Positions 24,044 to 39,742 of a DNA stretch of 44,124 nucleotides are shown here, piece by piece (position 1 is the first letter of the stretch; every line of letters begins with the position of its first letter). The notes under the pieces were generated by a model. That model saw nothing but the letters and a program-made list of their open reading frames with translations. It searched no databases and was not told the origin of the DNA. Both the position numbers and the translations under genes were made by a program. This DNA comes from an uncultured Thermococci archaeon (GTDB taxonomy: Archaea; Methanobacteriota_B; Thermococci; Thermococcales; Thermococcaceae), in contig CAZAPD010000030.1 of the NCBI GenBank assembly GCA_964487115.1, positions 1 to 44,124 of the forward strand. Reading direction: 5' to 3'.

Positions 24044-24784
24044 TTAAACTTCTCTTAAAAAAGTTCCGAGATTATTGAAAAGCCTCTGCGAAACGTCCAG
24101 TAACGTTGGGGCTTCATCAAGCTCAAGAACAAGTGACGTAGCATTCTTTGGAACAGGATTTGCTACATTAAGACCCACACCAAGTACAGCATAGCGCACC
24201 ATGTCAAGTTCACCTGCGACTTCTATGAGCACACCTGAAATCTTTTTCCCTTCAACATAAACGCCGTTCTCTACAGCTTTGCCCTTTACACCGTACTCTC
24301 CAAGCGTCTTTATGATGGCTGAGAGAGCAGGAGATAGAAGCTCACCGGCCTTCGCCAGTCTGAGTTTTGGCCTAAGAATAACGGAAAAGTAGAGACCACC
24401 TTCTCTGGAGATCCACTTCCGCATCAGCCTGCCTCGGCCCGCACTCTGTTTCCCTGCTATCACAAATGTCCAGCTTTTTTCTCCTCTCTCTGCGAGCTTT
24501 CTGGCAACGTTCATTGTGGAGTCAGTTTCCACCAGATAATAGCTTTTGACATCAAGTTCCCATGGATACGGTTTGTGGGGTTCTTCCAGAAGCCTGTAAC
24601 CCTTTGGAGTGGCGTCTATCTTGTAGCCAAGCTCTTTTAGTTCTTTCACATGTTTCCAAACCGCAACCCTTGAGACTCCAAGCTCTCTTGCTATTTTATC
24701 CCCGGAAACTACTCTCCTATTCCTCAGCGCCTCAAGGAGGGATCTCTTTATCCTGCTGTCTCTTATGAGGTTTCTAATCATCAT
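24044..24784 (-). CDS. birA: BirA-type biotin repressor / biotin-protein ligase with N-terminal HTH
   Basis: VSGDKIARELGVSRVAVWKHVKELKELGY...KGYRL; TDSTM; QSAGRGR; GLYFSVIL; KKISGVLIE; GVGLNV. Confidence 0.92.
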   Translation of the reverse strand: MMIRNLIRDSRIKRSLLEALRNRRVVSGDKIARELGVSRVAVWKHVKELKELGYKIDATPKGYRLLEEPHKPYPWELDVKSYYLVETDSTMNVARKLAERGEKSWTFVIAGKQSAGRGRLMRKWISREGGLYFSVILRPKLRLAKAGELLSPALSAIIKTLGEYGVKGKAVENGVYVEGKKISGVLIEVAGELDMVRYAVLGVGLNVANPVPKNATSLVLELDEAPTLLDVSQRLFNNLGTFLREV

Positions 24785-24792
24785 CAGAATTT

Positions 24793-24821
24793 CGTTAACT
24801 AAAAAGTTTTAAAGATTAACG
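24793..24821. promoter_or_regulatory. Candidate BirA operator CGTTAAC-N15-ATTAACG
   Basis: Near-perfect spaced palindrome in the 59-bp divergent birA/bioY spacer, enclosing a TTTTAAA TATA-like core. Confidence 0.75.
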
Positions 24822-24843
24822 GAGGATGGTGAAAGGTGATGAA

Positions 24844-25359
24844 ATGAAGGCAAATGAAGTGGCTTATACGGCTCTCTTTGTGGCTTTAACGGCTGTCAGC
24901 GCTCAGATAGCAATTCCGCTGGGGAGTGTTCCAATAACCCTCCAAGTGCTCATGGTTCTACTGAGTGGTTTTATTCTCGGTGCTAAGCTCGGATTTTTAA
25001 GTCAGCTCATCTATGTGATAATGGGCGCAATAGGTTTTCCGGTCTTTGCAAACTTTCAGGGTGGATTGGGGGTTATATATGGCCCAACGGGTGGTTATCT
25101 GCTGGCATTCCCGCTGGCTGCATTCTTAGCTGGCTGGATCAGCGAGAAAAGCGAAAATATCGGGTTGCATTTTGCTGCCGCACTGGGAGCAATTGGCGTT
25201 ATATACCTGTTAGGTTGGCTGAGGCTTGGTTTTTTCATTGGAGGGAATTTCAAAAAAGCGTTTATGATCGGAGTACTACCATTCATTGGAGTTGACCTAA
25301 TAAAGGCAGGTGTCGCTGTGATAATCACAGAGAAGGTTAAAAAGAGCGGGTTTATGTAA
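24844..25359 (+). CDS. bioY: Biotin transporter S-component BioY
   Basis: VPITLQVL..LLSGFILG; GAIGFPVFA; GPTGGYLLAF; VLPFIGVDLIKA; GGTGA RBS. Confidence 0.95.
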   Translation: MKANEVAYTALFVALTAVSAQIAIPLGSVPITLQVLMVLLSGFILGAKLGFLSQLIYVIMGAIGFPVFANFQGGLGVIYGPTGGYLLAFPLAAFLAGWISEKSENIGLHFAAALGAIGVIYLLGWLRLGFFIGGNFKKAFMIGVLPFIGVDLIKAGVAVIITEKVKKSGFM

Positions 25360-25780: not shown

Positions 25781-28700
25781 ATGGAAAATTCCTTCACAAA
25801 GAAGGTGTTTGTTCTGGTTGTGTCCCTTTTAATGCTCCAGTTCCCTCTGGCTTTTGCGGTTTCTCTTCCCCATTCGATTTTTTATGGGGCAAAAGAAACA
25901 ATTGACATAGAAAACAGTATAGTGCCTGCATACATCTCGCAGGTGAATTATACCGATGAAGACCTGAGAAAGGAGATTGAGCTTAAATACTCCTATAATC
26001 TCGATGAGTTCATAGCGTTGCTCAATAATGATCCGATTGAGATTTTCTGGTATATACGTAACAATTTTGACTATGAGCCATACTATGGAAGCCTAAAAGG
26101 TCCTGTTGGAACATTTCTCCAGAGAGGCGGCAATGACCTTGATTTAGCATCCTTGCTCGTGGAGATTTACAGGCAGCTTGGAATTCCGGCGAGATACGTA
26201 AGAGGCAACATAAGATTGTCAGAAAGTCAGCTGAGAAACTGGTTCGGGATTAAAAATGTTGAGAGGGTTCTGAAAACCGGTCTTATACCCTATGAAAAAA
26301 CTTCTGACGGCTATATCGTTGAACATTTCTGGGTTGAGGCTTATCTTGATGGCAAATGGGTCCCGCTGGATCCTTCTTTTAAGGAGTACGAATATGTGCC
26401 ACCTGAGCTCAACATCACACAGATGGGGGAAGGTTTTGCTGAGAGCGTTTTTAATAACTCGGTGTCCGGTAGTGATTGGTATCTCCTGAGAAAGGACGTG
26501 GAGGGCTCGCCTGTTCTTTCGGATGATTATCTAAACAATGTGAGCGAGGACATTATCAAAACTCTGGGGGTTAGGTATATAGGAAACACCTCCAAACAGA
26601 GTATTTACAGAACTCTGAAGGGATTGTCAGACTTCAAAAGTGCTATTTTTGGCTCATGGAGGATAATTGAAAGTAGAGAGGGTTTTGGAAAGCTACCGTT
26701 TAATGTTAGCAATGTCTTAGCAGAATTCCCAGAAATTCCCTCAAAATTCAAATATAAAGTCAGGATTGAACTTCCGGGACAGGATGTAAATACAACCCTG
26801 ATCTTGGGCAATGTTAGCACGAAGAGGATCACCCTTGGCTGGCTTCCGGCCACTGAGAACGACAAAAAAGAAGTGGAGAAATATGAGGATATAACGGATA
26901 TTCCGATAGACAGCGTTAATTTCACCCCTGTCTTGATGCTCGATGGAGTTCCGGTTGCTAAAGGCCGGATTTCACATCTTGGAGAAAAGGCAAATCTAAC
27001 GGTCACAATGCTCCTTGGAAACCGTGTTCTCTATGTGGAAGACACTCCTGTTACCGCTGGGGGATATTATGCGGTCAGTATAGATGCACTGAGGGTGAGT
27101 CAGCAGTTCCTGAACTATCGTTTGAACAGGCTTAGAATTACAAGCTTCATGCTCGAAAGAGGCTTTTCCAACGTTACGACAGACGAAGTTATAGGAGAGA
27201 TGCTGAATTTGGCAGGTCTAACCTACTGGTATGAGCTCGATAAATATGCCGATGAAGTAGCATTCCGTTTAGGAATAAGGTGGATCAGGGTTCCTTCCGT
27301 TATAGTGCTTGGAACTGCATATAAGGTTGAAGAGGATAAGTTGCGATTTATTGGGATGTTTGTGGATGTTCAGAAAGACCTCTATCTGCCACTTTCAGAG
27401 AATAACAATAAAACGAGAGAAAGGGGTTTTATGATTAGCACTGGGAGGAGAGGTTCTGAGCTTGAGGCTTATGTGCTCAGACAATACTTTAATGCCCCTG
27501 CAATTTCCACTGCAACGATATTTGATTTGGCCTACGAGCTCACCATCCCGATATACCATGTTAATTCCTCAAATGTTAATTCTGTCCTTCCTCTGCTGAA
27601 TATAAGTCAAGAAGATAAGAACAAAATACTTGGTTATGTCAATAGTGGCTATGAAGTTTATGTACCCAGGGATAATGTGGTTATAAATGGATGGGTTGGA
27701 ACTGGCTACTACGTTGTCGATCCTGAGACAGGTGCGATGGCATACATGATAAGCGGTGGCATCAGAGGGGGCTTATCATTAACTGAATGGATGCACTCCC
27801 TAATGCAGGATGCAACTATGGAATTATTCAAGTGTCTGGGATTCATGAAGAGTATGGGTAAAGCGCTTGCTGAAAAAGTTTCTGATGCAGTTTCTGTATT
27901 TGTGAGTGCTGTCCTGAGTACAGTTGAAACCGTGGCATCGTGTCTTGAGGCACATCCCTGTGAATGCTCCCAGTACATAAAACAAACTGTTGTTAGCGTT
28001 GTTGTCGATGGAATTATGACAACATTGACGATAGGTATAACGGTAACAGGTACGGGGATTTTGGTACTCTTCCTTAAACTGTTGGCCTTTACAGGGGAGG
28101 GTACTATTTCATACGTCATAGGAGACATAACCAAGAAACTGATAAACTGGTTTTTGGGCTTTAGCAACACACTGAGAAACTGTCCAGCTCCAGATGTTGT
28201 AATAAGACAACCAAGAACCATACTTAAAGTTTCCAAACAGGTCATGGACTATGTTAGAGCATTCAGCATATGCGTCGTTTCACAAAACGGGCTCCGGGCG
28301 TATAGGGAAGTTGATTGGGAAATCCCGCGATGGGGCAATCCACCCCTTATCAAATATGGGATAAGGGGAATAAGAATCCGTTCAGGGATTATTTTTGCAT
28401 CTATGCAGTCTCAGTGTGACTCTGTTTATGTCATGATAGATCCTGCATATGTGCCTATGAATATCAAGCTTAGAGGAGGTATCGTTGAAGTTCCGGTCAA
28501 GGTCAATATAAAGATGGAAACCTTCAAAGGCGTTGAAACATTCACAAAAACTGGCTATATACGGTATAAATACGTGGTTAAAAAAGGAGATCTGATCCAG
28601 GTTTTAGGTCTCTCACAAACCATAACTTATACTGAAGGCGGAAGCGGTTCCACATACTTCACATTCATAAACAGGGCGGATAAAACCGTCAGAATATATG

Positions 28701-31700
28701 TCAGAAAGGATGGAATACCCGGGCTGAAAGTTGAATATCCAAAGAGAGTACCCCCACATTCCCAGTTTACTGTCAAGGTAACATCCTCAGGACTCTCAAA
28801 AGGACGTTATTCAGGAGGAATAACAGTTATCGGAGAAATTCCAACCACTGATGAGTGGGGGTATAAAGAGGATAGTGCTTATGGTCTCCTGTGGGTTGAG
28901 GTCAGAGGGAAAAATGGAAAACCACCCGGCCATGGAGATCCCAACGCAAGACCTGAGAATCCCGGAAATGACCATCCTGATGACAGTTTAGATGTTCCAA
29001 GGCTAACCCTCACAAAGGAGCTCGACTTCTATACACTCCTCAGGGAGGGCCTGAAGAAAAACATTAGTGAAGCTGTTGATCTCCTTGAACTTGCCAGTTA
29101 CCAAGCGATGCTCTCTAATTTGAGTATCGAAAATATAAGCGCATACAGGAGTCTCGCTTCTCAAGTGACGAAGCTTTACATCAGATTATCTTCGAATCTG
29201 AAGTTCCTCAATGATCTGATGGAAAAAGCCCCAGCTGTTGCAATCTTTAGGAAAGGATTTTACTCGGGAGCAGAGAACATTCTGAAAAAGGCTAAAATCC
29301 CCTATAAGCTTGTTGACGAGAATTTTGATCCGGTTAAACTGGTAAAATATCAGAAAATCCTTATACTGCCAAGTGGATCCCTGTTTGGAATGCAGAGCGA
29401 TGCCTTTAAGGAGAAACTCAAACTTTACTTAGAGAAGGGGGGAGACATCATAGTTTTTGATCAGCAATACGGTGACCACTTCTCCGTGATTCCGGGAGGT
29501 TTGAATGGTTATGGCTGGGCTCAGGATCAGATGTGTCATGCAAACTCTCTCTATGCCGCTCAGGATCATCCCATACTCTCAACCGTGCAGTCAAATCTCA
29601 TAACCGAGGATGTTGACGGATACTTCGAAACTTATCCTCCCAACTCCATAGTTCTCATGAGAAGAACCAAAAACGATTTCCCGGCTATGGTGCTTTACAG
29701 CTATGGAAAAGGGCATGTCTTAGCAACCACGCTGTATTCTGACTGGAAGTCCCAGAACTATGTCTCTACCTTTATGATGAAAATTCTGAGAGATGCAATT
29801 GCGTACTTTGAGCTGAATGAGGATATCTATGAAATAGGTGTCGGCAGGGCATGGTACGGGCTGGTACTCGGGGGACCATATACAATACCCATCAACGTTA
29901 CAAACCCAACAAACGTGACTGCAGATAGCGTTAAATTCAGGATTCTGACTCCTTCTGGAAACCTCAGATCTGAGATAACTCTAAATGAGACGATCCAACC
30001 GGGTGAAACGAAAACTGTTAATGTCACCCTCTCGGCAAAGGACTTCGGTTCCGTTGTGCTTGGGATATGGACTGTGGATTATACCCTCCTCTCGGGTGGG
30101 AATAAAATCTATACAAAGTATGATGCAAAGGGCATTTCCATGAATATTTACTACAACAGTGATGAGTACTTCAACTACAAAGGCGGCAACAAATATCTTA
30201 TATGGGCAACGGCAGAAAAAGAAAAGGTTCTGTTTGGTGAGAAGGTCAGAATAACATTCCACATCATAAACAAGGACAGCAAAACCCTGACAGGACAGCT
30301 TGGAATAGGGGATCATATAAACGGGTGGCGTGTACTTGAGGTCAAGAATGTCACAGTCGCCCCGGGAGAATACAAAAAGTACTATTTTGAAGTGTATCCC
30401 TATGTGGATGCAGGCAATTATCCCGGTCTCACATACTATATGGGGTTATACACTGACAAATCACCTTATGAAGGTGCAGGTAACTTCTGGGATGCACGGT
30501 TTAGTGCTGAAAAGGGATTTTACATAATACGTCCAAATCTAAAGCTTGCCTCCAGCATTGATAAGAAGGAATATGCTCCCGGAGAAACCATAACCGTGCA
30601 TGTTAATATAACAAATAATGATGAGATTGACTGGCGGCTCATGTTGATAACTATCATGAAGTACAACAGGCAAACTGTTAGAACTGTATCCCAAGCAGTC
30701 ACGATTCCAAAGCTCTCCACAATAAGTGTCCCCATATCAATCAAGGTGCCTGAAGATGCGGAGAGGGGGTACTACACCCTGATAACAACTTTCGGTGACA
30801 TGTATGGCAAAACAAACGGTCTGGAGGACTTCTATCTTCCGACATCCAATCTGTATTTCACCAGAAAAGTCTCCAATATTGAGATAACCCCTGAATTTAC
30901 GAAACCTCTTGCGGTCAGGATAAAGGCGAGGATAACGAACAATATCTCGATAGTGAAACCTAAACTGCTCGTTACGGCAGATGAGTTCTGGCAGAAAGGA
31001 CACAACACCCATAAGTATGAATTTAACTTAACATTTACCAATTGGGAGACTGAGGTTACAGTGCCTCTGAACGAAGACATCTTTGGGAAATATCAGATTT
31101 CCTACGTTCTTTATGAGGGCGGTGTTGTGGCCACTTCGGGATCAGCGTATCTGAACAGAAGAGTCATCATAACACCGAAAATTATGTTCTCTGGAAGGGC
31201 ATTAAGCAATCTAACACTAAGTGTAAATCTCTCAAATCCGGGCTTTTTGAACGAAGATTTCAGTCTCAATATAACGATCCCAGCACTGAACTACACCACC
31301 ATGATTCCGGTTTCGCTTCTGCCCAGAGGAGGAAAGGAAATCAATGCAACTATTGGCATTCCGAATCTTCCACCGGGACTTTACCCCATAATAATCCGTG
31401 CTCAGAAGGCCAGGGGATTCATTGAATCCCGTGCCTACTTCAGGATTATGGAGTCCAATGTTCAGGGAATTATCTATCCCCAGACATATTCTGCAGGAGA
31501 AAATGCCCTTGCGCTCTTGGAGAATAAGGGAGGTGTTCCGACAACCGTTCGGGGCAATCTCTCGATAATCCACGACAGCTCGGTGCTCTCAATCAGGAAT
31601 TTCACATTCATCCTAAATCCGGGAGAAAACAGAACTGTTGGAGTTCCAATTCCTCTCAACACACCCCGGGGCAGCATGATAGCTCTCAATTTCACCGATT

Positions 31701-34700
31701 TAAAGAGAGGCATAACGAGGCACTACACGAGACCCCTCTATCTCAGTGGATTCAAAGTAAAGGCAGTTCATGATAATGAAAGCTACGCTCTTGACAATCT
31801 CACCGTTACCCTAATTAATGAGGGAGGCATCACGGATACTGTCAATGTGACTATATCACTTAGACAGTATTTCTGGGAAAAGATCTTCGGAGAATGGAAG
31901 TACTACAACATTACCCTCGCTCCGGGAGAGAGCGTGAACGTCACTCTTACTGTTCCAAACATCATCTCAGGCAGGTACATCCTCTATGTAACTGCCTCTG
32001 GAAAACAGGGGACATCATATTACTGGGATTATCTTAATGTCATCGGACCTAATATCAGCGTGCACGTTGATAAAACCTCATACGTCGCAGGGGATAATGT
32101 GACGGTGAGGATAACTAACAGTGGAGGAGGCCATACAAAGCTAAATGTAGCCGCTCAACTCAGGGGCAACCTAACATTCTGGGACCTTGGTAGCACTTCA
32201 CTGGATATTGGAAAGCTTGAGAGCAAAGAAGTTGTCTTTACAATACCAAAGAGTGTTCCAACGGGTAGTTATACCCTTATAGTGCGCCATAAGTTTGGAA
32301 GCTACCGCAAGAATGTCACGGTTAAAGGACTTGAGCTGAGTATCAGCCTGCAAAAGGAGAGCTATGATGTGGATGAGAATATATCTGTGAGGATTGAGAA
32401 CACAGGAGGTACGGATGCTAACCTTGAAGTGCAGTATAGAATCTCATCTCAAACCGGAACTGTTAATGTTACGGTTCCAAAGGGTGCATCATCAACACTT
32501 GAGCTTGAGATACCTGATGGTCTTCCATCTGGGAGATATAGCTTGTATCTCAGGATTCATGATAGATTCACCGGCTTGTGGATGGAGAAGCATTTCACCA
32601 TACAAATTAGAGGAGCTGAGCTTGAAATAATTCCCGTTAAAACTGATCTTGAACCAAGAGAAGGACTTTCCATACTGTTCCTGAACAAAGGAGGAATAGA
32701 TCTCAATCTGAATACAACGCTCACTATAGCAGGCTCTACCGTGAGCCAGCAGTTTGTACTTCCAAAAGGAAGAAACTCAACAAGAACCTTTAGCCTGCCG
32801 CCTCTTAAAAGCGGAGAATACAGAGTGGAGATAATCGCAGTTGATAGTAACAGCAACAGGAGGTTCTTCCGTGCAATTTCAATCTCGATAAGCAGCTTCA
32901 AAATAAACGCTACCCTGAACAGAAAGAGCTTTTCGATAGGAGACTCACTGATGATTGCACTAACCAGCGGCACAAACGTGGATGCAAATCTAAGCTATAG
33001 GCTTGACATGGTGGATGAGGAAGGAAACACCTTCCATCTCACGGATGGCAATTTAAGGCTGTCCGCCATGGGAACGTCATCAATAACCGCAACGATTGAC
33101 AAGGTGGCGAGAGGCAACTATACTCTAACCCTCAGAATGACAGAGATGACTACAGGGGAGAATTTCGTGGTTACATGGACCATATACATAGACGGAGCAT
33201 GGGGAAAAATCAGTATTGACATGCCGTCGTTAGCATTTGTCGGCTCGCTTCCAGTAGCCGTGAATGTGACGGGCAATACTGGAGGAACGCTCAGAATCCT
33301 TGGAAATCCCTACATTGAATCACATCCAGTGAAGCTCATAGGAATTGAATCTGATGGAGGCCTGTGGATAGCTTTCTCCACCCATCTGGGATACTATCAT
33401 GATGGAAAGCTTGAGCTCTTTGGGTATCCCAACGGAACTATAATCGAAGGAGGATATGAAGGCATGTCCGCAGCAATGACGAGCAGTGAGGACCGCATAT
33501 GGATAGCCTCGTGGAATAAAATCCTTGAGTTCAACAAGAATACTCACGAGTGGAAGATTTACATCACCGCGGACATACCCGGCTTCCCAGCCACAGTAAA
33601 TTGGGAATGGGGAGAGGAGCAGGTTAGCATCTTCAGCCTTGCATACTACAACAGTTCATTATGGGTCGGAACAGACAATGCAGGTCTGGTCAGGATAAAT
33701 CCAGAGACTATGACTACAATCACCATTTACAACTCGACGAACAGCCCGCTAACCACCGATTACATAATGGCACTGAAAGTGAATGGAAGTGACCTATGGG
33801 CGCTTGGTGATGGCCTGTGGAAAATCGGAAACAAATGGACTCACTACTCTCCGGAGGATTTCAACCTGACATGGATCGATGCATTTGATGTCTTTGATAA
33901 TCAACTCTGGGTTGGTGGTGAAAACAACTCCATTATCTCCGTATGTATGCTCGGTGGGGAATGCCTCAGGGATTTACCCTCATGGAGGGTTTCCAATATT
34001 GAACACGATAACGAGTCCATATGGATCATATACTCACCTTGGGATCAGATTACGGTGAGCAGGTACTATTTGGCCAATAAAACGCGGGTTGACTATTCCG
34101 GAGATACATTCTGGGGCGGTCTGGTGGAGGTGGAAAACAACATCTATGCCTCAAGTTATGGACTCCTTATAGGAGGTATGGGAGGCAAGCTGGTAAGATT
34201 CGGACCCTCGGGATATGTACAGGATATTGCATATCATGATGGAATTGCATACATTCTAACTGAAAACGGGGAGATTTCAATTTACAACCTCAGCAGCGGT
34301 AAATGGAAATTCATAATCAACGAGACGTTTGCAAATAGCAACAGGATAGCCTATGCTGGGGGCAGACTGTTTATGACGATATGGTCAGGCTTGATTGAAT
34401 ACGACCTGAGCAGTGGCTCTGTTACCATATACAGTTCATCAAACTCTCCGTTCAGCAGTTCAAGAAATCCAACAGGACTTGCAGGAGATGATGGGGTGTT
34501 ATACATTGGCACCACTGATGGCCTTGTGGTTCTGAATCTTACATCAAACAGCTTCACACTCTACTACCCACCCAATTTCGGAACAGCCGTGAGGGATGTG
34601 TGGCTCAATGGTGACGAGCTGTGGATTGCAGGGGACAATGGTGTGGGGATATATGACATCTCATCCAATACGTATAGGTCCTATTTGAGGGGTGTATCCT

Positions 34701-37700
34701 CATGGCTCGTGAGGGCATATGGAGATGAAGTATGGGCAGCATTCTACCAAAATTCAGATTATGCTCTCTGGCATTACAACAGAGAAAGCGGAATGAGCGA
34801 GATATACAACTCGACAAACGGATTAACAGGCGAGTATATTCAGGATATGGCAAGGTTCGGGGGGCTTGTGTTTGTTACTTATAACTGGGGAAGCAATGTA
34901 TCAGTTTTTGATGGAAACGCATGGAGAACAATATCTATACCCGCACAGTCTGTTGAGTCTTCTGAAAAAGGCGCACTCCTTGGCGGTAATATATTTGCCA
35001 TATATTCAATGGATGTATTTGAATTCCCCGTTGCTCAGGGGAGAAACGAGTTCAATATAACCCTTAGAAGACCCGGAGAAGCGTCATACACCTTCAGACT
35101 GCTGCTCGGAAATCAGGTTCTCGATGAGGAGATACGGGAGCTGAATGTTTATGAGCATGCAATATCATTTGATCTGAGAACATCGAAGTATCTCTACAAG
35201 AAGGGTGAGAACGCGACTTTTGAAGTCATCATAAGGAATGATGCACCTCTGGATGATATCGCCAGTTACAGACTGCTCCTTGGAGATGCTGCCTATGAAG
35301 ATACAATAACTGTTGGAGCAGGTCAGGAGGTGCATCTAAGCTTTGTTATAAAAGCTGAGTCAAGCTTTAACGCCACGCTTGTTGTGAATGGAGTATCCAG
35401 GGTGGTTCCAATAAGCGTTATTGAACCGAAAGCAGAGATAACACTAAGCGCTCCAGATGTGGTCGGGTATGGGAAGCCTTTCAATGTTACCCTGACGATA
35501 ACAAATACAGGAATTGTGCCAGTTGATCTCTCAGTGGATTTTGCTGGAAACAGAAATATTACCGTAGAACCGGGAGATTCTGCTGTTATTTCTCAGGAAA
35601 TGACAATAACGAACGACACTACACTTAGGGCTGTAATTTCCGGTGATTTGAACAGGACGCTGGAGAAGAAGATTATCATGGGAGAAAAGATTAACATATT
35701 CTTTGGAAACTATACGGTGATTCCCGGACATTCAGAACTTCCGTTTACAGTTGAAAACCGTGGGATCCTCGATTCAAACTTTGTCCTTGTAGTTAAAAAC
35801 GGGAGCTGGTCATGGCAGAGCAACCTCTCAGTTCCAGCAGGAGCAAAGCTTAACCTTACGCTACCCGTTGATCTGAATGAAGGGAGCTACACATTCGTAT
35901 ACAGAAGCAAATTTGGAACTGGAAGCTTTTACGTGGAGGTTATAGGAGAGAAGCTCTCGGTTTCATATGGGTTTGATGGAGAAGAGATAGCACTCAACGT
36001 AACAAACCTCGCACCCCTTGACTTCAGTGGAACGCTGAGAATCGATTCTTCAATACTCTCAACAGTCACGAATATAAGTGTGACCGCAGGTTCATGGAAA
36101 CTCCTCACATTTCCGTCTGGAAATCTATCTCCCGGAACATACAACCTCACGCTGAGAATAGATAGAAATGGCAGACTCGTGCTTTTGAAAACTCTAACGA
36201 TTAAAGCGGAGCCGAGGATAATCCTGATTATTGGGGGCATAACAAACGAGCAGAAGATTGGCGATATCATAAATGCAACTGTTACAGTGAGGAACAGTGG
36301 AACCGCATGGAAAAGGGATCTGCTTGTGTTTGAAGTTCCCGGAATCTACAGGAAGGAGGTGCAGATGAAAGTTGGCATCGGTGAGGAGAAAGTCTTCAAC
36401 TTTACATTTGCCCTGCCTATGGATCTGCCGAGCAAAATACTGAGAGCAACTGCAAGATTTGGCAACGTCACAGCTGAGAGGAGCTTCCGTCTCAGAGGTG
36501 TCAACTTAAGCGTTAATCTAACAACCGATAAGACATGGTACTATGAGGATGAGAATGTTACTGCCACGATAACGTTGGTCAACCATGAGAACATAACGCT
36601 GAAAGGCAACATTAGCCTATCATGTTCCTCCTTCAACAGTACCCGGAGTTTTGAGCTGGGAGAGGGGGAGAAGGAATTCACGTTCAGGTTCCCAGTATGT
36701 TCAAGAATCTTCTACCAGATAAGTTTAAGCACGGGACGTATCATCTACATAAATTCACGGCTGGTTCAGATTCGGGAGAGAAGTGCAGAGGTTAGTGTTA
36801 TCACAGATAAAGACCGCTATTCCATAGGTGACAATATGACGGTTTATATCTACTCCACTAAGCCCGTTACTGTGGCTTTGGCTGTCTTTGACAATGTAAC
36901 TCTTGTAAATGTCACAAATACAGCATCCTTAAAGTTTAAGATTCCCGATGTAGAAAGCGGTACGTACAGGATTTATTATTCCTATGGCAATGAAACAAAG
37001 AGCAGGGAGTTTGATGTGGTATCTCCTGCTGCAAAAGTCCTCGACTTTGAGCTTAAGAAAAGGCTCTTTGAGCCGGGTGAAAACGTGAGCTTCACTGCTC
37101 TTGTGCATGCAGATGAAGATGTTGTTGGGAAGGTAGTGGTATGGTTGTACCAAGGAAGCTCCCTCATAGACTACTACTTGAAGCCGCTAAATCTAACCGC
37201 AGGAGACAACTACATTAATGTCACTACAGATATAGTAGTTCCGAATATCGGCTCATATACCCTGCTCTATGCCTTCTATCGCGGCTTGAACTCAACAGTT
37301 ATCGCCTCAGGAAGCCAGATCCTCCAGACAGAAGGAGCGTTGATAACATCAATGACAACGGATAAGGAGGAATATACTGAGGCTGAGAACATCAAACTGA
37401 GGCTGGTGATAACCGGAACTCCAGGAACGTATGTGCTCAGGATAAAGGGAGTAAGTGATGTGCTGGAGAAGAATATCACAGTAGGTGGAAGTACAGAGGT
37501 TAATCTGACTCTTCCTGCAAAGTACTTCGACATAAGAATTATCGCCAGCCTGCTCATGGGCGAGTATTCAACATCCAAAGAAATTGCTGTAAAGGTGACA
37601 AACCTACCTCCTGTGGCTCGCTTCAAAGTTCAGGGCAACATGAGTGTTAATTCAGAGCTAACATTTGATGCATCTCTCAGCTCTGATCCCGGTGAGGACA

Positions 37701-38215
37701 GCTTAACCTATTCATGGGACTTTGGAGATGGAACCTCACTAACCGTTTCAGCACCGGTTGTTACACACACATACACCCAAGCTGGCAACTACACTGTAAT
37801 ACTGACTGTCAGCGATGGAGATGGTGGAACCGATATAGCAATTCTCGTACTTGAAATTTCTAAAGCTGGAGTTATCAAGAACATAACAGTAATAAACAGG
37901 GAAAGCGCCTTCAGAAGAATAACGACACTGGCTCAGATGTGGACTGCGAGATACTTCTACTACAGGACAGAATATGAGGAGCTTCTGGCAAGGGCAAAGG
38001 AGCTGGAGGTCGATAATGAGACCCTATCATCAATAATTCAACTCCATGAAGAAGCTGAGATTCTTATGACCGAAGGATGGAGGGTCAAAAATATAGAGAG
38101 TGTCCTCGGGGTTTGGATGAAGGCCGGCGTCGTTCCGAATCTTATCAAGGTAAGAAGGGCATATCTGCTCGAAAAGAAGACTGTGGACAGGCTTAGAAAG
38201 CTTTTAGGTCTTTGA
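25781..38215 (+). CDS. Giant (~4,144 aa) multidomain surface protein: transglutaminase-like N-terminus, hydrophobic helical segment, GATase1-like domain, Ig-like repeats, beta-propellers, PKD, pyrolysin-type C-terminal tail
   Basis: Uninterrupted 12.4-kb ORF; GGAGGG RBS; signal peptide; YEPYYGSLKG..GGNDLDLASLL..IPARYVRG..EHFWVEAY..WVPLDPS; LWVGTDNAGL propeller blades; PPVARF..FDAS.SSDP..YSWDFGDG..HTYTQAGNYTVILTVSD (PKD); many N-x-S/T sequons. Confidence 0.93.
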   Translation: MENSFTKKVFVLVVSLLMLQFPLAFAVSLPHSIFYGAKETIDIENSIVPAYISQVNYTDEDLRKEIELKYSYNLDEFIALLNNDPIEIFWYIRNNFDYEPYYGSLKGPVGTFLQRGGNDLDLASLLVEIYRQLGIPARYVRGNIRLSESQLRNWFGIKNVERVLKTGLIPYEKTSDGYIVEHFWVEAYLDGKWVPLDPSFKEYEYVPPELNITQMGEGFAESVFNNSVSGSDWYLLRKDVEGSPVLSDDYLNNVSEDIIKTLGVRYIGNTSKQSIYRTLKGLSDFKSAIFGSWRIIESREGFGKLPFNVSNVLAEFPEIPSKFKYKVRIELPGQDVNTTLILGNVSTKRITLGWLPATENDKKEVEKYEDITDIPIDSVNFTPVLMLDGVPVAKGRISHLGEKANLTVTMLLGNRVLYVEDTPVTAGGYYAVSIDALRVSQQFLNYRLNRLRITSFMLERGFSNVTTDEVIGEMLNLAGLTYWYELDKYADEVAFRLGIRWIRVPSVIVLGTAYKVEEDKLRFIGMFVDVQKDLYLPLSENNNKTRERGFMISTGRRGSELEAYVLRQYFNAPAISTATIFDLAYELTIPIYHVNSSNVNSVLPLLNISQEDKNKILGYVNSGYEVYVPRDNVVINGWVGTGYYVVDPETGAMAYMISGGIRGGLSLTEWMHSLMQDATMELFKCLGFMKSMGKALAEKVSDAVSVFVSAVLSTVETVASCLEAHPCECSQYIKQTVVSVVVDGIMTTLTIGITVTGTGILVLFLKLLAFTGEGTISYVIGDITKKLINWFLGFSNTLRNCPAPDVVIRQPRTILKVSKQVMDYVRAFSICVVSQNGLRAYREVDWEIPRWGNPPLIKYGIRGIRIRSGIIFASMQSQCDSVYVMIDPAYVPMNIKLRGGIVEVPVKVNIKMETFKGVETFTKTGYIRYKYVVKKGDLIQVLGLSQTITYTEGGSGSTYFTFINRADKTVRIYVRKDGIPGLKVEYPKRVPPHSQFTVKVTSSGLSKGRYSGGITVIGEIPTTDEWGYKEDSAYGLLWVEVRGKNGKPPGHGDPNARPENPGNDHPDDSLDVPRLTLTKELDFYTLLREGLKKNISEAVDLLELASYQAMLSNLSIENISAYRSLASQVTKLYIRLSSNLKFLNDLMEKAPAVAIFRKGFYSGAENILKKAKIPYKLVDENFDPVKLVKYQKILILPSGSLFGMQSDAFKEKLKLYLEKGGDIIVFDQQYGDHFSVIPGGLNGYGWAQDQMCHANSLYAAQDHPILSTVQSNLITEDVDGYFETYPPNSIVLMRRTKNDFPAMVLYSYGKGHVLATTLYSDWKSQNYVSTFMMKILRDAIAYFELNEDIYEIGVGRAWYGLVLGGPYTIPINVTNPTNVTADSVKFRILTPSGNLRSEITLNETIQPGETKTVNVTLSAKDFGSVVLGIWTVDYTLLSGGNKIYTKYDAKGISMNIYYNSDEYFNYKGGNKYLIWATAEKEKVLFGEKVRITFHIINKDSKTLTGQLGIGDHINGWRVLEVKNVTVAPGEYKKYYFEVYPYVDAGNYPGLTYYMGLYTDKSPYEGAGNFWDARFSAEKGFYIIRPNLKLASSIDKKEYAPGETITVHVNITNNDEIDWRLMLITIMKYNRQTVRTVSQAVTIPKLSTISVPISIKVPEDAERGYYTLITTFGDMYGKTNGLEDFYLPTSNLYFTRKVSNIEITPEFTKPLAVRIKARITNNISIVKPKLLVTADEFWQKGHNTHKYEFNLTFTNWETEVTVPLNEDIFGKYQISYVLYEGGVVATSGSAYLNRRVIITPKIMFSGRALSNLTLSVNLSNPGFLNEDFSLNITIPALNYTTMIPVSLLPRGGKEINATIGIPNLPPGLYPIIIRAQKARGFIESRAYFRIMESNVQGIIYPQTYSAGENALALLENKGGVPTTVRGNLSIIHDSSVLSIRNFTFILNPGENRTVGVPIPLNTPRGSMIALNFTDLKRGITRHYTRPLYLSGFKVKAVHDNESYALDNLTVTLINEGGITDTVNVTISLRQYFWEKIFGEWKYYNITLAPGESVNVTLTVPNIISGRYILYVTASGKQGTSYYWDYLNVIGPNISVHVDKTSYVAGDNVTVRITNSGGGHTKLNVAAQLRGNLTFWDLGSTSLDIGKLESKEVVFTIPKSVPTGSYTLIVRHKFGSYRKNVTVKGLELSISLQKESYDVDENISVRIENTGGTDANLEVQYRISSQTGTVNVTVPKGASSTLELEIPDGLPSGRYSLYLRIHDRFTGLWMEKHFTIQIRGAELEIIPVKTDLEPREGLSILFLNKGGIDLNLNTTLTIAGSTVSQQFVLPKGRNSTRTFSLPPLKSGEYRVEIIAVDSNSNRRFFRAISISISSFKINATLNRKSFSIGDSLMIALTSGTNVDANLSYRLDMVDEEGNTFHLTDGNLRLSAMGTSSITATIDKVARGNYTLTLRMTEMTTGENFVVTWTIYIDGAWGKISIDMPSLAFVGSLPVAVNVTGNTGGTLRILGNPYIESHPVKLIGIESDGGLWIAFSTHLGYYHDGKLELFGYPNGTIIEGGYEGMSAAMTSSEDRIWIASWNKILEFNKNTHEWKIYITADIPGFPATVNWEWGEEQVSIFSLAYYNSSLWVGTDNAGLVRINPETMTTITIYNSTNSPLTTDYIMALKVNGSDLWALGDGLWKIGNKWTHYSPEDFNLTWIDAFDVFDNQLWVGGENNSIISVCMLGGECLRDLPSWRVSNIEHDNESIWIIYSPWDQITVSRYYLANKTRVDYSGDTFWGGLVEVENNIYASSYGLLIGGMGGKLVRFGPSGYVQDIAYHDGIAYILTENGEISIYNLSSGKWKFIINETFANSNRIAYAGGRLFMTIWSGLIEYDLSSGSVTIYSSSNSPFSSSRNPTGLAGDDGVLYIGTTDGLVVLNLTSNSFTLYYPPNFGTAVRDVWLNGDELWIAGDNGVGIYDISSNTYRSYLRGVSSWLVRAYGDEVWAAFYQNSDYALWHYNRESGMSEIYNSTNGLTGEYIQDMARFGGLVFVTYNWGSNVSVFDGNAWRTISIPAQSVESSEKGALLGGNIFAIYSMDVFEFPVAQGRNEFNITLRRPGEASYTFRLLLGNQVLDEEIRELNVYEHAISFDLRTSKYLYKKGENATFEVIIRNDAPLDDIASYRLLLGDAAYEDTITVGAGQEVHLSFVIKAESSFNATLVVNGVSRVVPISVIEPKAEITLSAPDVVGYGKPFNVTLTITNTGIVPVDLSVDFAGNRNITVEPGDSAVISQEMTITNDTTLRAVISGDLNRTLEKKIIMGEKINIFFGNYTVIPGHSELPFTVENRGILDSNFVLVVKNGSWSWQSNLSVPAGAKLNLTLPVDLNEGSYTFVYRSKFGTGSFYVEVIGEKLSVSYGFDGEEIALNVTNLAPLDFSGTLRIDSSILSTVTNISVTAGSWKLLTFPSGNLSPGTYNLTLRIDRNGRLVLLKTLTIKAEPRIILIIGGITNEQKIGDIINATVTVRNSGTAWKRDLLVFEVPGIYRKEVQMKVGIGEEKVFNFTFALPMDLPSKILRATARFGNVTAERSFRLRGVNLSVNLTTDKTWYYEDENVTATITLVNHENITLKGNISLSCSSFNSTRSFELGEGEKEFTFRFPVCSRIFYQISLSTGRIIYINSRLVQIRERSAEVSVITDKDRYSIGDNMTVYIYSTKPVTVALAVFDNVTLVNVTNTASLKFKIPDVESGTYRIYYSYGNETKSREFDVVSPAAKVLDFELKKRLFEPGENVSFTALVHADEDVVGKVVVWLYQGSSLIDYYLKPLNLTAGDNYINVTTDIVVPNIGSYTLLYAFYRGLNSTVIASGSQILQTEGALITSMTTDKEEYTEAENIKLRLVITGTPGTYVLRIKGVSDVLEKNITVGGSTEVNLTLPAKYFDIRIIASLLMGEYSTSKEIAVKVTNLPPVARFKVQGNMSVNSELTFDASLSSDPGEDSLTYSWDFGDGTSLTVSAPVVTHTYTQAGNYTVILTVSDGDGGTDIAILVLEISKAGVIKNITVINRESAFRRITTLAQMWTARYFYYRTEYEELLARAKELEVDNETLSSIIQLHEEAEILMTEGWRVKNIESVLGVWMKAGVVPNLIKVRRAYLLEKKTVDRLRKLLGL

Positions 38216-38216
38216 G

Positions 38217-38240
38217 TCTTTTTATTTTTACTTTACTTTT
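38217..38240 (+). terminator. Oligo-T archaeal terminator after the giant gene
   Basis: TCTTTTTATTTTTACTTTACTTTT immediately after the TGA. Confidence 0.65.
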
Positions 38241-38311: not shown

Positions 38312-39742
38312 ATGATACCGAGAACAATGAGTACTCAACATCCTGATAATGTATTTATTCCATTCTTTGCTCAAGAACCCACCCTTGGAGGGGAAGATGA
38401 GGTAACGGAGGCATTTTACGCCTTCAGCGTTCTTGGGATAGAGGAGCAGATGTGGGACTTTGAGGGCAAAGAGGTGGATGAGTTTGTCGTCAAAAAACTC
38501 CTTGAGAGGCATGGTTACTTTTTTAAGGAACACAGGCTTGGAGAAGAGTTTAGGTTAACACCAAGAGTCCCGAACCCAACTGTTGAAAAAACTGAAGCAA
38601 AGCTTTTGCTTGAAACTCTGGAGAGCATTCCACGTTCAGCAGATTATGCAAAAGTTTTCTACGGTGAGGAGATAATCCCAATATTTGAGATTATCCTGCC
38701 AATGACAACCTCTTCTGAGGAGATTGAACGAGTTTATGAGCTCTACAAACGCTACATTGCAGGAAAACAGTACAAGAGAGTCTATGATGTAAAGATATAT
38801 GAATGGATAGGGGAGTTTTTCCCCAAGGAGATAAGCGTAATTCCCCTCTTCGAGACGAAAGAGGCCATCTTAAATGCCCATGAAATTCTTGAGGAGTATA
38901 TGACCGGGAAGAACTTTGAATACCAGCGTATCTTTTTAGCGCGGAGCGATCCAGCTATGAACTACGGCTTGATAAGTGCAGTTCTCTATGACAAATATGC
39001 CCTATTTAAGCTCCAAGAGCTTGAGGAGGAAATGGGGGTTGAGATATATCCCATAATCGGTGTTGGGGGAGTGCCCTTTAGGGGACATCTTATTCCTGGG
39101 AACGTTAGAGGCGTTTTAGAGGAATACAAAGGTGTTCAGACTTTTACAATTCAGAGCTCGTTTAAGTACGACAATCCTCCAAAAGAGGTTATAAAAGCTG
39201 TGGAAAAAATAAAGTCCTCCAAAAGGAGGAAAACTGAGGCAGTAGATGAGAAGATATTTGAACTCCTTTCAAAATACGAGAGGGCGTATTCAACAGAACT
39301 CAGAGCTTTAGCACCGCTTATAAGGGAAGTGGCAAAATACGTCCCTTCAAGGAGAAGACGAAAGCTTCACATTGGTCTTTTTGGATACTCAAGGGAGGTT
39401 AACGGCTTAGCTCTACCCAGAGCAATAAAATTCACCGCATCACTATATTCCATTGGTGCTCCACCCGAGCTCTTGGGCTTGAGTGCTTTAAGCGAGAGTG
39501 AATTGGACAAAATCAGCGAGTACTATAAAGGCCTCTACAGAGACCTGAAATTTGCCTTGATGTATTTCAACGCAAGAGCAGCCGAGAAGTTCAAGTTCTT
39601 AAAACCTATTGCCGATCTTCAAAAGGAGTTCGGAGTCGAGCCTGTAAAAGAGCACGAAGTGATAACCACAAGAATTCTAAGCGGAGAGCTGAGTCAGGAA
39701 CTGGTGGTTGAAGCTGCGGGGATAAGGAGATTTCTTGGTTAA
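38312..39742 (+). CDS. ppcA: Archaeal-type phosphoenolpyruvate carboxylase
   Basis: MIPRTMSTQHPDN; EQMWDFEGK; RLTPRVPNP; FEIILPMT; VIPLFE; RIFLARSDPAMNYG; PFRGH; LPRAIKFTASLYSIG. Confidence 0.96.
   Translation: MIPRTMSTQHPDNVFIPFFAQEPTLGGEDEVTEAFYAFSVLGIEEQMWDFEGKEVDEFVVKKLLERHGYFFKEHRLGEEFRLTPRVPNPTVEKTEAKLLLETLESIPRSADYAKVFYGEEIIPIFEIILPMTTSSEEIERVYELYKRYIAGKQYKRVYDVKIYEWIGEFFPKEISVIPLFETKEAILNAHEILEEYMTGKNFEYQRIFLARSDPAMNYGLISAVLYDKYALFKLQELEEEMGVEIYPIIGVGGVPFRGHLIPGNVRGVLEEYKGVQTFTIQSSFKYDNPPKEVIKAVEKIKSSKRRKTEAVDEKIFELLSKYERAYSTELRALAPLIREVAKYVPSRRRRKLHIGLFGYSREVNGLALPRAIKFTASLYSIGAPPELLGLSALSESELDKISEYYKGLYRDLKFALMYFNARAAEKFKFLKPIADLQKEFGVEPVKEHEVITTRILSGELSQELVVEAAGIRRFLG

Follow-up and report, generated by a model that had tools for sequence, protein, structure and literature searches.

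Two kinds of described surface protein are among those closest to the product of the gene reported here. According to the available text of Zhang et al. (2012; PMC3482391), proteins with a signal peptide and a transglutaminase domain lacking catalytic triad residues "always" continue into RHS repeats and a C-terminal toxin, and the domain is read as a surface anchor. VARTIG (arCOG07710), as described in the available part of Makarova et al. (2021; PMC8416519), is a protein of ~1,000 amino acids whose C-terminal immunoglobulin (Ig) domain is hypervariable and which heads an island of small downstream genes; the same text has contact antagonism as experimentally uncharacterised in archaea as of 2021. 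We analysed a giant gene in a 44,124-nt stretch of DNA from an uncultured Thermococci archaeon (contig CAZAPD010000030.1 of assembly GCA_964487115.1; hereafter the window), whose predicted product combines an inactive transglutaminase module, a variable internal segment, a conserved hub and a long stalk (Table 1). We read the protein, at a probability of about 0.55, as a surface-tethered contact weapon in which the conserved hub and the Ig/propeller stalk stand behind a swappable tip, with residues 665-801 as the predicted payload.

With the inactive-transglutaminase RHS toxins, as given in the accessible text of PMC3482391, the giant protein shares an inactive transglutaminase directly behind the signal peptide and a tie to toxin-bearing proteins; unlike them it has no RHS, its variable segment is internal, and 3,100 residues of hub and stalk follow. 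The 25 best of the 27 matching Pfam families include no RHS, and the C-terminus consists of a PKD domain and a helical tail, not a toxin. Like VARTIG in the text at hand, it is a patchy, secreted, Ig-rich and variable surface-type protein of Thermococcales; unlike VARTIG, it has 4144 residues, an internal variable region and a single gene with no island, and is thus set apart from arCOG07710 by the available description. Transglutaminase, glutamine amidotransferase and propeller are not mentioned in the part of PMC8416519 at hand. The core of the module shares its fold with the pseudomurein endoisopeptidases PeiP/PeiW (Z 10.9, root mean square deviation [rmsd] 2.7, 129 aligned residues) and with C. 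hutchinsonii 3isr (Z 10.5, rmsd 3.7, 150 aligned residues), and differs from both in that its catalytic Cys is replaced and that ~450 more conserved residues have no fold match. The giant protein is therefore outside the RHS-linked inactive-transglutaminase class, VARTIG and the active transglutaminases, although it resembles polymorphic contact toxins. The Streptomyces umbrella toxin particles (PMC13274773, in part) are likewise large extracellular assemblies with variable toxin and binding modules; unlike the giant protein they are multi-protein and secreted, and domains common to both were not detected. The hub is not described in the available portions of the literature on S8-PTS, giant Omnitrophota genes, the Esr system, archaeal dark matter and umbrella toxins. 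We found no published description of the hub or of a mirror-image layout within a scope that did not extend to the supplements of Zhang et al. (2012) and of the VARTIG paper or to Makarova et al. (2019, mBio, on archaeal polymorphic toxins), which may bear on novelty.

Carrier module and variable segment

Transglut_core (PF01841) matches residues 87-198 (Pfam E 1e-13). The structure model was confident for most of the module, with a predicted local distance difference test (pLDDT) score above 90 across the core, and likeness to transglutaminase-fold peptidases was confined to that core (Z about 10-11); a sequence search with residues 28-1106 against solved structures gave no match. In the column that we take, from the GxCxDxA motif, to be that of the catalytic Cys, Cys occurs in 0/150 aligned sequences and Asp in 119, with the triad partners kept (His182 in 142/150, Asp197 in 140/150); a Cys stands two residues ahead of this column in 15/150. 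The original prediction placed a possible effector in this ~670-residue module. The homologues indicate instead that the module is a catalytically dead enzyme and not the effector, because it has no catalytic Cys and is conserved as a carrier, the variable part lying behind it.

The module is widespread (6,546 clusters at 50% identity among the library matches) and ends at ISGGxxGG, a sharp conservation border reached by the alignment in 149 of the 150 best matches. Tails behind this border have a median length of 189 residues (most are short and free of RHS, 116/149 being of 50-500) and are highly variable, with 144 tails (143 matches with a tail of at least 50 residues, plus the window) falling into 74 BLAST clusters; 85/144 open with a hydrophobic stretch (KD19 hydropathy of at least 1.8). 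A Pfam scan of 52 hand-picked homologues found wall hydrolases in the tails (NlpC/P60, 2; M23, 4; M15-like, 1) and other toxin-type domains (RHS, 7; PT-HINT, 4; WHH/colicin DNase, 3; AHH, 2; Tox-REase-5, TNT and SsdA, 1 each). Not all tails are classic toxins: in P0026, P0033, P0050 and P0095, the module precedes alpha/alpha-toroid (TED/squalene-cyclase-like), PAD and NosD domains. Among 12 bacterial stand-alone module loci inspected, six have a co-oriented downstream gene (L187-L191, L193).

In the giant protein the module is followed by a helical segment with Cys at 685, 721, 727, 729 and 801 and a KD19 of up to 2.02 at residues 751-769, within a transmembrane (TM)-like stretch at 745-772 (~2.0). 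Against the two other Thermococci ortholog types, residues 665-801 are 14-24% identical, whereas the module reaches 48-54% and the hub 50-71%; inside the closest ortholog group, segment identity is 56-67%. The giants of Methanosarcinaceae and Thermoplasmata have the same frame with different segments, and BLAST of the variable region against the Thermoplasmata segment found no similarity. A fold search of the segment returned generic helical-bundle scores only (Z <7), which excludes nothing, and a search with residues 666-1060 among proteins of 693-2000 residues found no homologue, which is weak evidence. Judged from sequence, the helical segment behind the module, internal to the chain, is the predicted candidate effector.

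The hub and its N-terminal tips

The hub is a helical bundle followed by the GATase1-like alpha/beta domain named in the original prediction, the fold of which was backed by AlphaFold and by a fold search of residues 1151-1345 (5xb7, GH42 middle domain: Z 16.7, rmsd 2.8, 180 aligned; 1t0b, ThuA-like: Z 15.6, rmsd 3.2, 188 aligned; fold neighbours also 4jqs and IFT52N 5fms). It has the fold of class I glutamine amidotransferases and PfpI proteins at 9-18% identity to class I glutamine amidotransferase-like folds, with no Pfam or NCBIfam match found. Unlike class I glutamine amidotransferases, it has its own invariant residues and a PGxDHPDD motif upstream. Cys1252 (29534-29536) is invariant in all 29 covering sequences of a set from a profile search; Q1228, D1249, D1279 and R1295 are further invariant residues. 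The motif falls in what had been called a Pro/Asp/Gly linker; a region of that kind is there, but its content is highly conserved (Table 1) and the motif recurs in 96 of 108 hub ORFs (open reading frames).

Protein searches with the hub returned 8 and 23 proteins, and locus scans required a DQxC pattern; the relatives comprise 44 genome loci and 63 metagenome loci. They are spread over Nitrospirota, Thermodesulfobacteriota, Bacillota, Elusimicrobiota, Chloroflexota and several archaeal groups, with Methanosarcina sp. KYL-1 and Paenibacillus ginsengarvi as cultured carriers; the hub was not found in a plasmid collection. After removal of 5'-open, unclassified and redundant ORFs, 56 hubs were classified by hand. 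Their tips are mostly zinc-dependent phospholipase C (PLC)-like (25) or the transglutaminase module (10), followed by Amidase_6 (4), M23 (3), alpha/beta hydrolase (3), forms resembling ribosomally synthesised and post-translationally modified peptides (RiPP-like, 3), RHS (2), Amidase_3 (1) and NlpC-like (1), the NlpC-like and RiPP-like classes being assigned by motif; four hubs have no tip. A solved phospholipase C is matched by the PLC-tip profile (E 6e-5), the alignment bringing the HFY and HL..D...P.H motifs into register, while Pfam support in the large PLC-tip cluster is weak (3/20). In a quick tree of hubs, related hubs bear different tips (Shimodaira-Hasegawa-like approximate likelihood ratio test values of 95 and 99).

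Of the 37 enzyme-tipped loci, 34 have a co-oriented gene abutting the hub gene on its upstream side; the other three lie at most 320 nt from a contig start. Among 17 such genes compared, likeness was found only inside one tip class, and their N-termini appear exported by eye. The partner of PLC tips is a lipoprotein (Cys31 in at least 90%). L040 and L047 each carry an extra, orphan cassette of partner plus tip on the upstream side (55% and 47% to the tip, respectively), and units occur in tandem in L143 and L147. When the PLC tip and the upstream lipoprotein of a bacterial member (L117) were modelled as a complex, the runs scored 0.31, 0.00 and 0.00 and were uninformative. The upstream exported gene of bacterial members is likely, from these sequence comparisons, an immunity gene.

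Like the CdiA, Rhs and MafB contact toxins, whose features we take as generally understood (part of them tabulated in PMC3482391), bacterial hub members have a conserved filament, a variable effector, a linked partner gene and orphan cassettes. Unlike in those toxins, the effector lies on the N-terminal side of the filament, partner and orphans are upstream, and the window member has no partner gene. The polarity opposite to CdiA/Rhs that had been proposed for the window gene thus holds for effector position across the hub family. We consider it probable that the family is a polymorphic system of N-terminal effectors, with loci that mirror those of canonical polymorphic toxins.

Other arrangements were seen at hub loci. 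In Paenibacillus and one metagenome contig (L023:8276-19324, L024, L104), hub and stalk form one protein with a short leader and hydrophobic-core peptide that looks RiPP-precursor-like by eye, and a radical S-adenosylmethionine (SAM) gene adjoins the RiPP-like hub genes (Pfam match at L104). A split form occurs in L036:3113-18151 and L144:982-14283, where a full RHS gene (in L036 also a small gene) lies directly upstream of a hub-stalk gene without a signal peptide. In L113, a lipoprotein and PLC-hub pair is preceded by a truncated transglutaminase-module gene (L113:5984-7096) that a transposase-like gene interrupts.

Stalk, probable anchor and genomic setting

The order of domains read by the original prediction (signal peptide, transglutaminase-like module, Cys-containing hydrophobic segment, GATase1-like domain, Ig repeats, propeller, PKD and tail) is real, each lying where it had been placed. 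The ~20 Ig domains counted by eye agree with the domains found by a profile built from the giant protein's own segments, which also detected 18 domains (E<1e-3) in an ortholog left out of its building. The recurring K.sY..G[ED] pattern stood in part, the strict K..Y..G[ED] occurring only 4 times and a looser form 9 times, and the propeller was located with weak Pfam support. The PKD domain is 42-85% conserved among orthologs, and the giant protein has 102 N-x-S/T sequons.

The ~110-residue helical tail, for which there is no Pfam or NCBIfam model, is also C-terminal in four other secreted-type ORFs of the host genome (G000 C55, C82, C121 and C90; E 2e-44 to 3e-4, second search round). In orthologs it is replaced by PGF-pre-PGF plus a TM helix (L014) or by a TM helix (L016), and Methanosarcinaceae members have an anchor-type gene downstream. 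Because anchor types swap at this end, the C-terminus is likely the anchor, as had been suggested, and the tail is a candidate surface-sorting domain of Thermococcales secreted-type proteins. BLAST of the giant protein against its own genome detected no paralogs or internal repeats except PKD and tail. The genome has a second giant secreted-type protein (L197:2795-16189; G000:C90:17794-31188, +) of 4465 residues with 11 CARDB stretches, PKD domains and a weak tail match.

Table 1. Features of the giant gene and its flanks (window coordinates)
Feature	Position	Strand	Basis
bioY, upstream flank	24826..25359	+	Pfam scan
Giant ORF, 4144 residues plus stop	25781..38215	+	single uninterrupted frame, open from 25766/25781, ATG 25781
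Predicted Sec signal peptide, residues 1-26	25781..25858	+	basic N-region; KD19 of up to 2.53; cleavage site set by eye
Inactive-transglutaminase carrier module, residues 28-664	25862..27772	+	papain/transglutaminase core at residues 87-198; Asp119 at catalytic Cys position; C-terminal end YMISGGIRGG
Variable all-helical amphipathic/hydrophobic segment, residues 665-801, candidate membrane-inserting effector	27773..28183	+	hydropathy, structure model, ortholog identity
Two variable beta domains (Ig-like by eye), residues 802-1045	28184..28915	+	22-26% identity among ortholog types; no Pfam match
PGxDHPDD motif, residues 1061-1068, border of variable tip and hub	28961..28984	+	P1061, D1067 30/30; H1065 27/30
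Hub: helical bundle (residues 1082-1149) and GATase1-like domain (1151-1345)	29024..29815	+	AlphaFold, fold search, alignment
Stalk 1, ~11 Ig-like domains, residues 1355-2470	29843..33190	+	self-built Ig profile; MG2/CARDB-type Pfam matches
Beta-propeller region, about residues 2510-3070	33308..34990	+	weak Pfam propeller matches; propeller families in distant giants P0007, P0027, P0155
Stalk 2, 9 Ig-like domains, residues 3127-3935	35159..37585	+	self-built Ig profile
PKD domain, residues 3941-4018	37601..37834	+	Pfam E 2e-21
C-terminal helical tail, residues 4035-4144, candidate Thermococcales surface-attachment domain	37883..38212	+	tail shared within genome
Oligo-T tract, likely archaeal terminator	38219..38240	+	sequence, after stop
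ppcA (archaeal phosphoenolpyruvate carboxylase), downstream flank	38312..39742	+	Pfam scan

The ATG at 25781 was preferred as the start because a GGAGGGG stretch lies directly ahead of it. Contigs from one public sequencing run, which may be the source of the window, span 30/30 bins and those from two further runs 29 and 22, with no indels listed; no RNA data set was listed as containing the gene. Together with full-length orthologs of 4138-4288 residues, this argues against an assembly chimera. Three amino-acid differences from L099 and runs X1 and X2 are clustered in codons 760-764 (28059, 28067 and 28070); they make up 3/4 of the non-synonymous differences between window and L099, a number too small for claiming selection, and may be an assembly error in the window.

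A Pfam scan of the flanks agrees with a single gene between bioY and ppcA, as originally described, 421 nt behind bioY and 96 nt ahead of the ppcA start. The terminator ascribed to it is represented by the oligo-T tract; a stem-loop scan found no plus-strand terminator. Upstream lies an ordinary biotin uptake locus (24044-25359), in which a birA-type gene with a helix-turn-helix is divergent from bioY and the ATPase of an energy-coupling factor (ECF) transporter and CbiQ follow.

The host genome is 2.06 Mb in size and 96% complete; close homologues carry the NCBI label Thermococcus sp. The N-terminal module occurs in 6/97 genomes of the family, host included, one copy being a distant broken fragment and two reaching contig edges; the hub has a strong match in 3/97. 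A ppcA match was found in just 16 of 51 genus genomes, and in 12 of the 15 others with such a match bioY lies at most 2 kb away (11 at 1872-1900 nt, one at 724), compared with 12,956 nt in the window. In the relatives inspected, two genes absent from the window locus occupy this interval: one for a conserved 343-residue secreted protein (e.g. L080:446-1474) that also has the giant protein's tail, and one of 212 residues. The giant gene is therefore an accessory, patchy insertion, as had been surmised. It lies ahead of ppcA in G031 and between minD-like and asparagine-synthetase-like genes (so named by eye) in G119. One Thermococcaceae genome (G120, L011:6654-7544) has a broken fragment of a bacterial-type transglutaminase module.

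Proposed mechanism and competing explanations

A contact weapon of this design would be exported by Sec through its signal peptide and attached via its C-terminal tail, where three anchor types interchange in orthologs. An Ig domain is 3.5-4 nm long, so ~20 glycosylated domains could hold the tip up to ~70-80 nm out, and the mid-stalk propeller may bind the target. The dead transglutaminase module would carry and perhaps shield the segment behind ISGGxxGG, a position that precedes variable tails in 149/150 sequences. Upon contact, the helical segment would insert into the neighbour's membrane and damage it; release might conceivably follow cleavage of the GG motif or of PGxDHPDD, with hub Cys1252 perhaps doing the cutting. 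In bacterial members, an enzyme tip would act on wall or membrane, with the abutting upstream exported gene probably giving immunity.

A number of results weigh against a weapon. No immunity gene is adjacent to the giant gene, the 421-nt upstream gap having one ATG-started ORF of at least 25 residues, 38 residues long; this caveat of the original prediction stands, and extends to all 10 non-redundant transglutaminase-tipped and both RHS-tipped members. An abutting upstream gene is also present at 4/4 tip-less and 3 RiPP-like hubs and one tip is a thioredoxin, so that neither the equation of upstream gene with immunity nor that of tip with toxin holds generally. The segment has no enzymatic motif and no Pfam, NCBIfam or informative Atlas match, and its model, with four to five predicted helices, is of low confidence (pLDDT 52-69). 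In the closest ortholog group, the hydrophobic stretch comes only 90th from the lowest among 685 windows and parts of stalk 1 are more variable; Methanosarcinaceae segments are almost identical over six loci. Segment divergence in Thermococci may reflect rapid drift instead of an exchange of cassettes, because only three types were seen, these are still distantly homologous over residues 666-1065 (E 1e-18 to 5e-6), and no orphan cassettes lie near Thermococci giant genes. Finally, residue 1227, which we take from the topology of the fold to be the nucleophile elbow, is Ala, Ser, Asp or Thr, where the usual GATase Cys thus seems to be lacking, the invariant Cys being 25 residues further on, and the HPDD motif is unmodelled in the prediction (pLDDT <50).

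The alternative that survives best, and which we consider rather unlikely, is a non-toxic adhesin or self/non-self recognition protein, a toxin-derived scaffold whose archaeal variable segment and Ig domains would bind or recognise cells and not kill them. The want of an immunity gene at transglutaminase tips (10/10) and of an enzymatic toxin domain in the giant protein, the few and distantly homologous alleles, the long Ig/propeller/PKD stalk and the existence of hubs without a tip all agree with it. However, each of the two conserved modules lies next to toxin-type domains in relatives, and the variable segment occupies the slot that toxins or their membrane-crossing helices take in stand-alone homologues; archaea could, moreover, dispense with immunity if the target were bacterial or the segment shielded.

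The TM-like stretch would also suit an opposite topology, in which the protein is anchored in or on its producer's envelope through the inactive transglutaminase and the hydrophobic helices and the stalk points outward as a scaffold or adhesin, and Zhang et al. (2012; PMC3482391, available text) read inactive transglutaminases as producer-surface anchors, a further point against the weapon. This topology is improbable: KD19 of the segment is just 1.4-1.8 in other ortholog types, orthologs have C-terminal TM/PGF-type anchors or an anchor-type gene immediately downstream, and soluble enzymes fill the N-terminal slot in bacterial members. Least probable is a feeding or envelope-remodelling appendage that displays hydrolases to break down polymers or dead cells; the upstream gene would then encode a chaperone, and the window member would only bind. 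All enzyme tips would act outside the cell, upstream genes also accompany tip-less hubs and glycoside hydrolases often contain the hub fold as a non-catalytic domain, but conflict systems are typically marked by tip-specific partners, RHS carriers and cassettes that are orphaned or in tandem.

The contact weapon thus remains our preferred account of the window gene. More tentatively, and with rather less than even odds, the family may be an undescribed cross-domain class of reverse-polarity contact toxins, in which effectors at the N-terminus, held out on an Ig stalk of 70-80 nm, would be processed or tethered by a PGxDHPDD/GATase-like hub with an invariant Cys. Bacteria would bear phospholipases or wall hydrolases with upstream immunity, and archaea toxin carriers (inactive transglutaminase or RHS) with an internal membrane-inserting payload and no immunity gene, maybe aimed at bacteria. 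In the known polymorphic contact toxins the variable effector comes last, followed by the immunity gene, and genome mining looks for that order. A family built the other way round would escape it; with the hub motif, such a family can be sought across phyla. The inactive transglutaminase module emerges as a general carrier with a sharp GG border, beyond a role as RHS anchor alone. If self-processing and upstream immunity were confirmed, the family would be a new class, and for Thermococcales the giant protein is a concrete candidate for contact antagonism.

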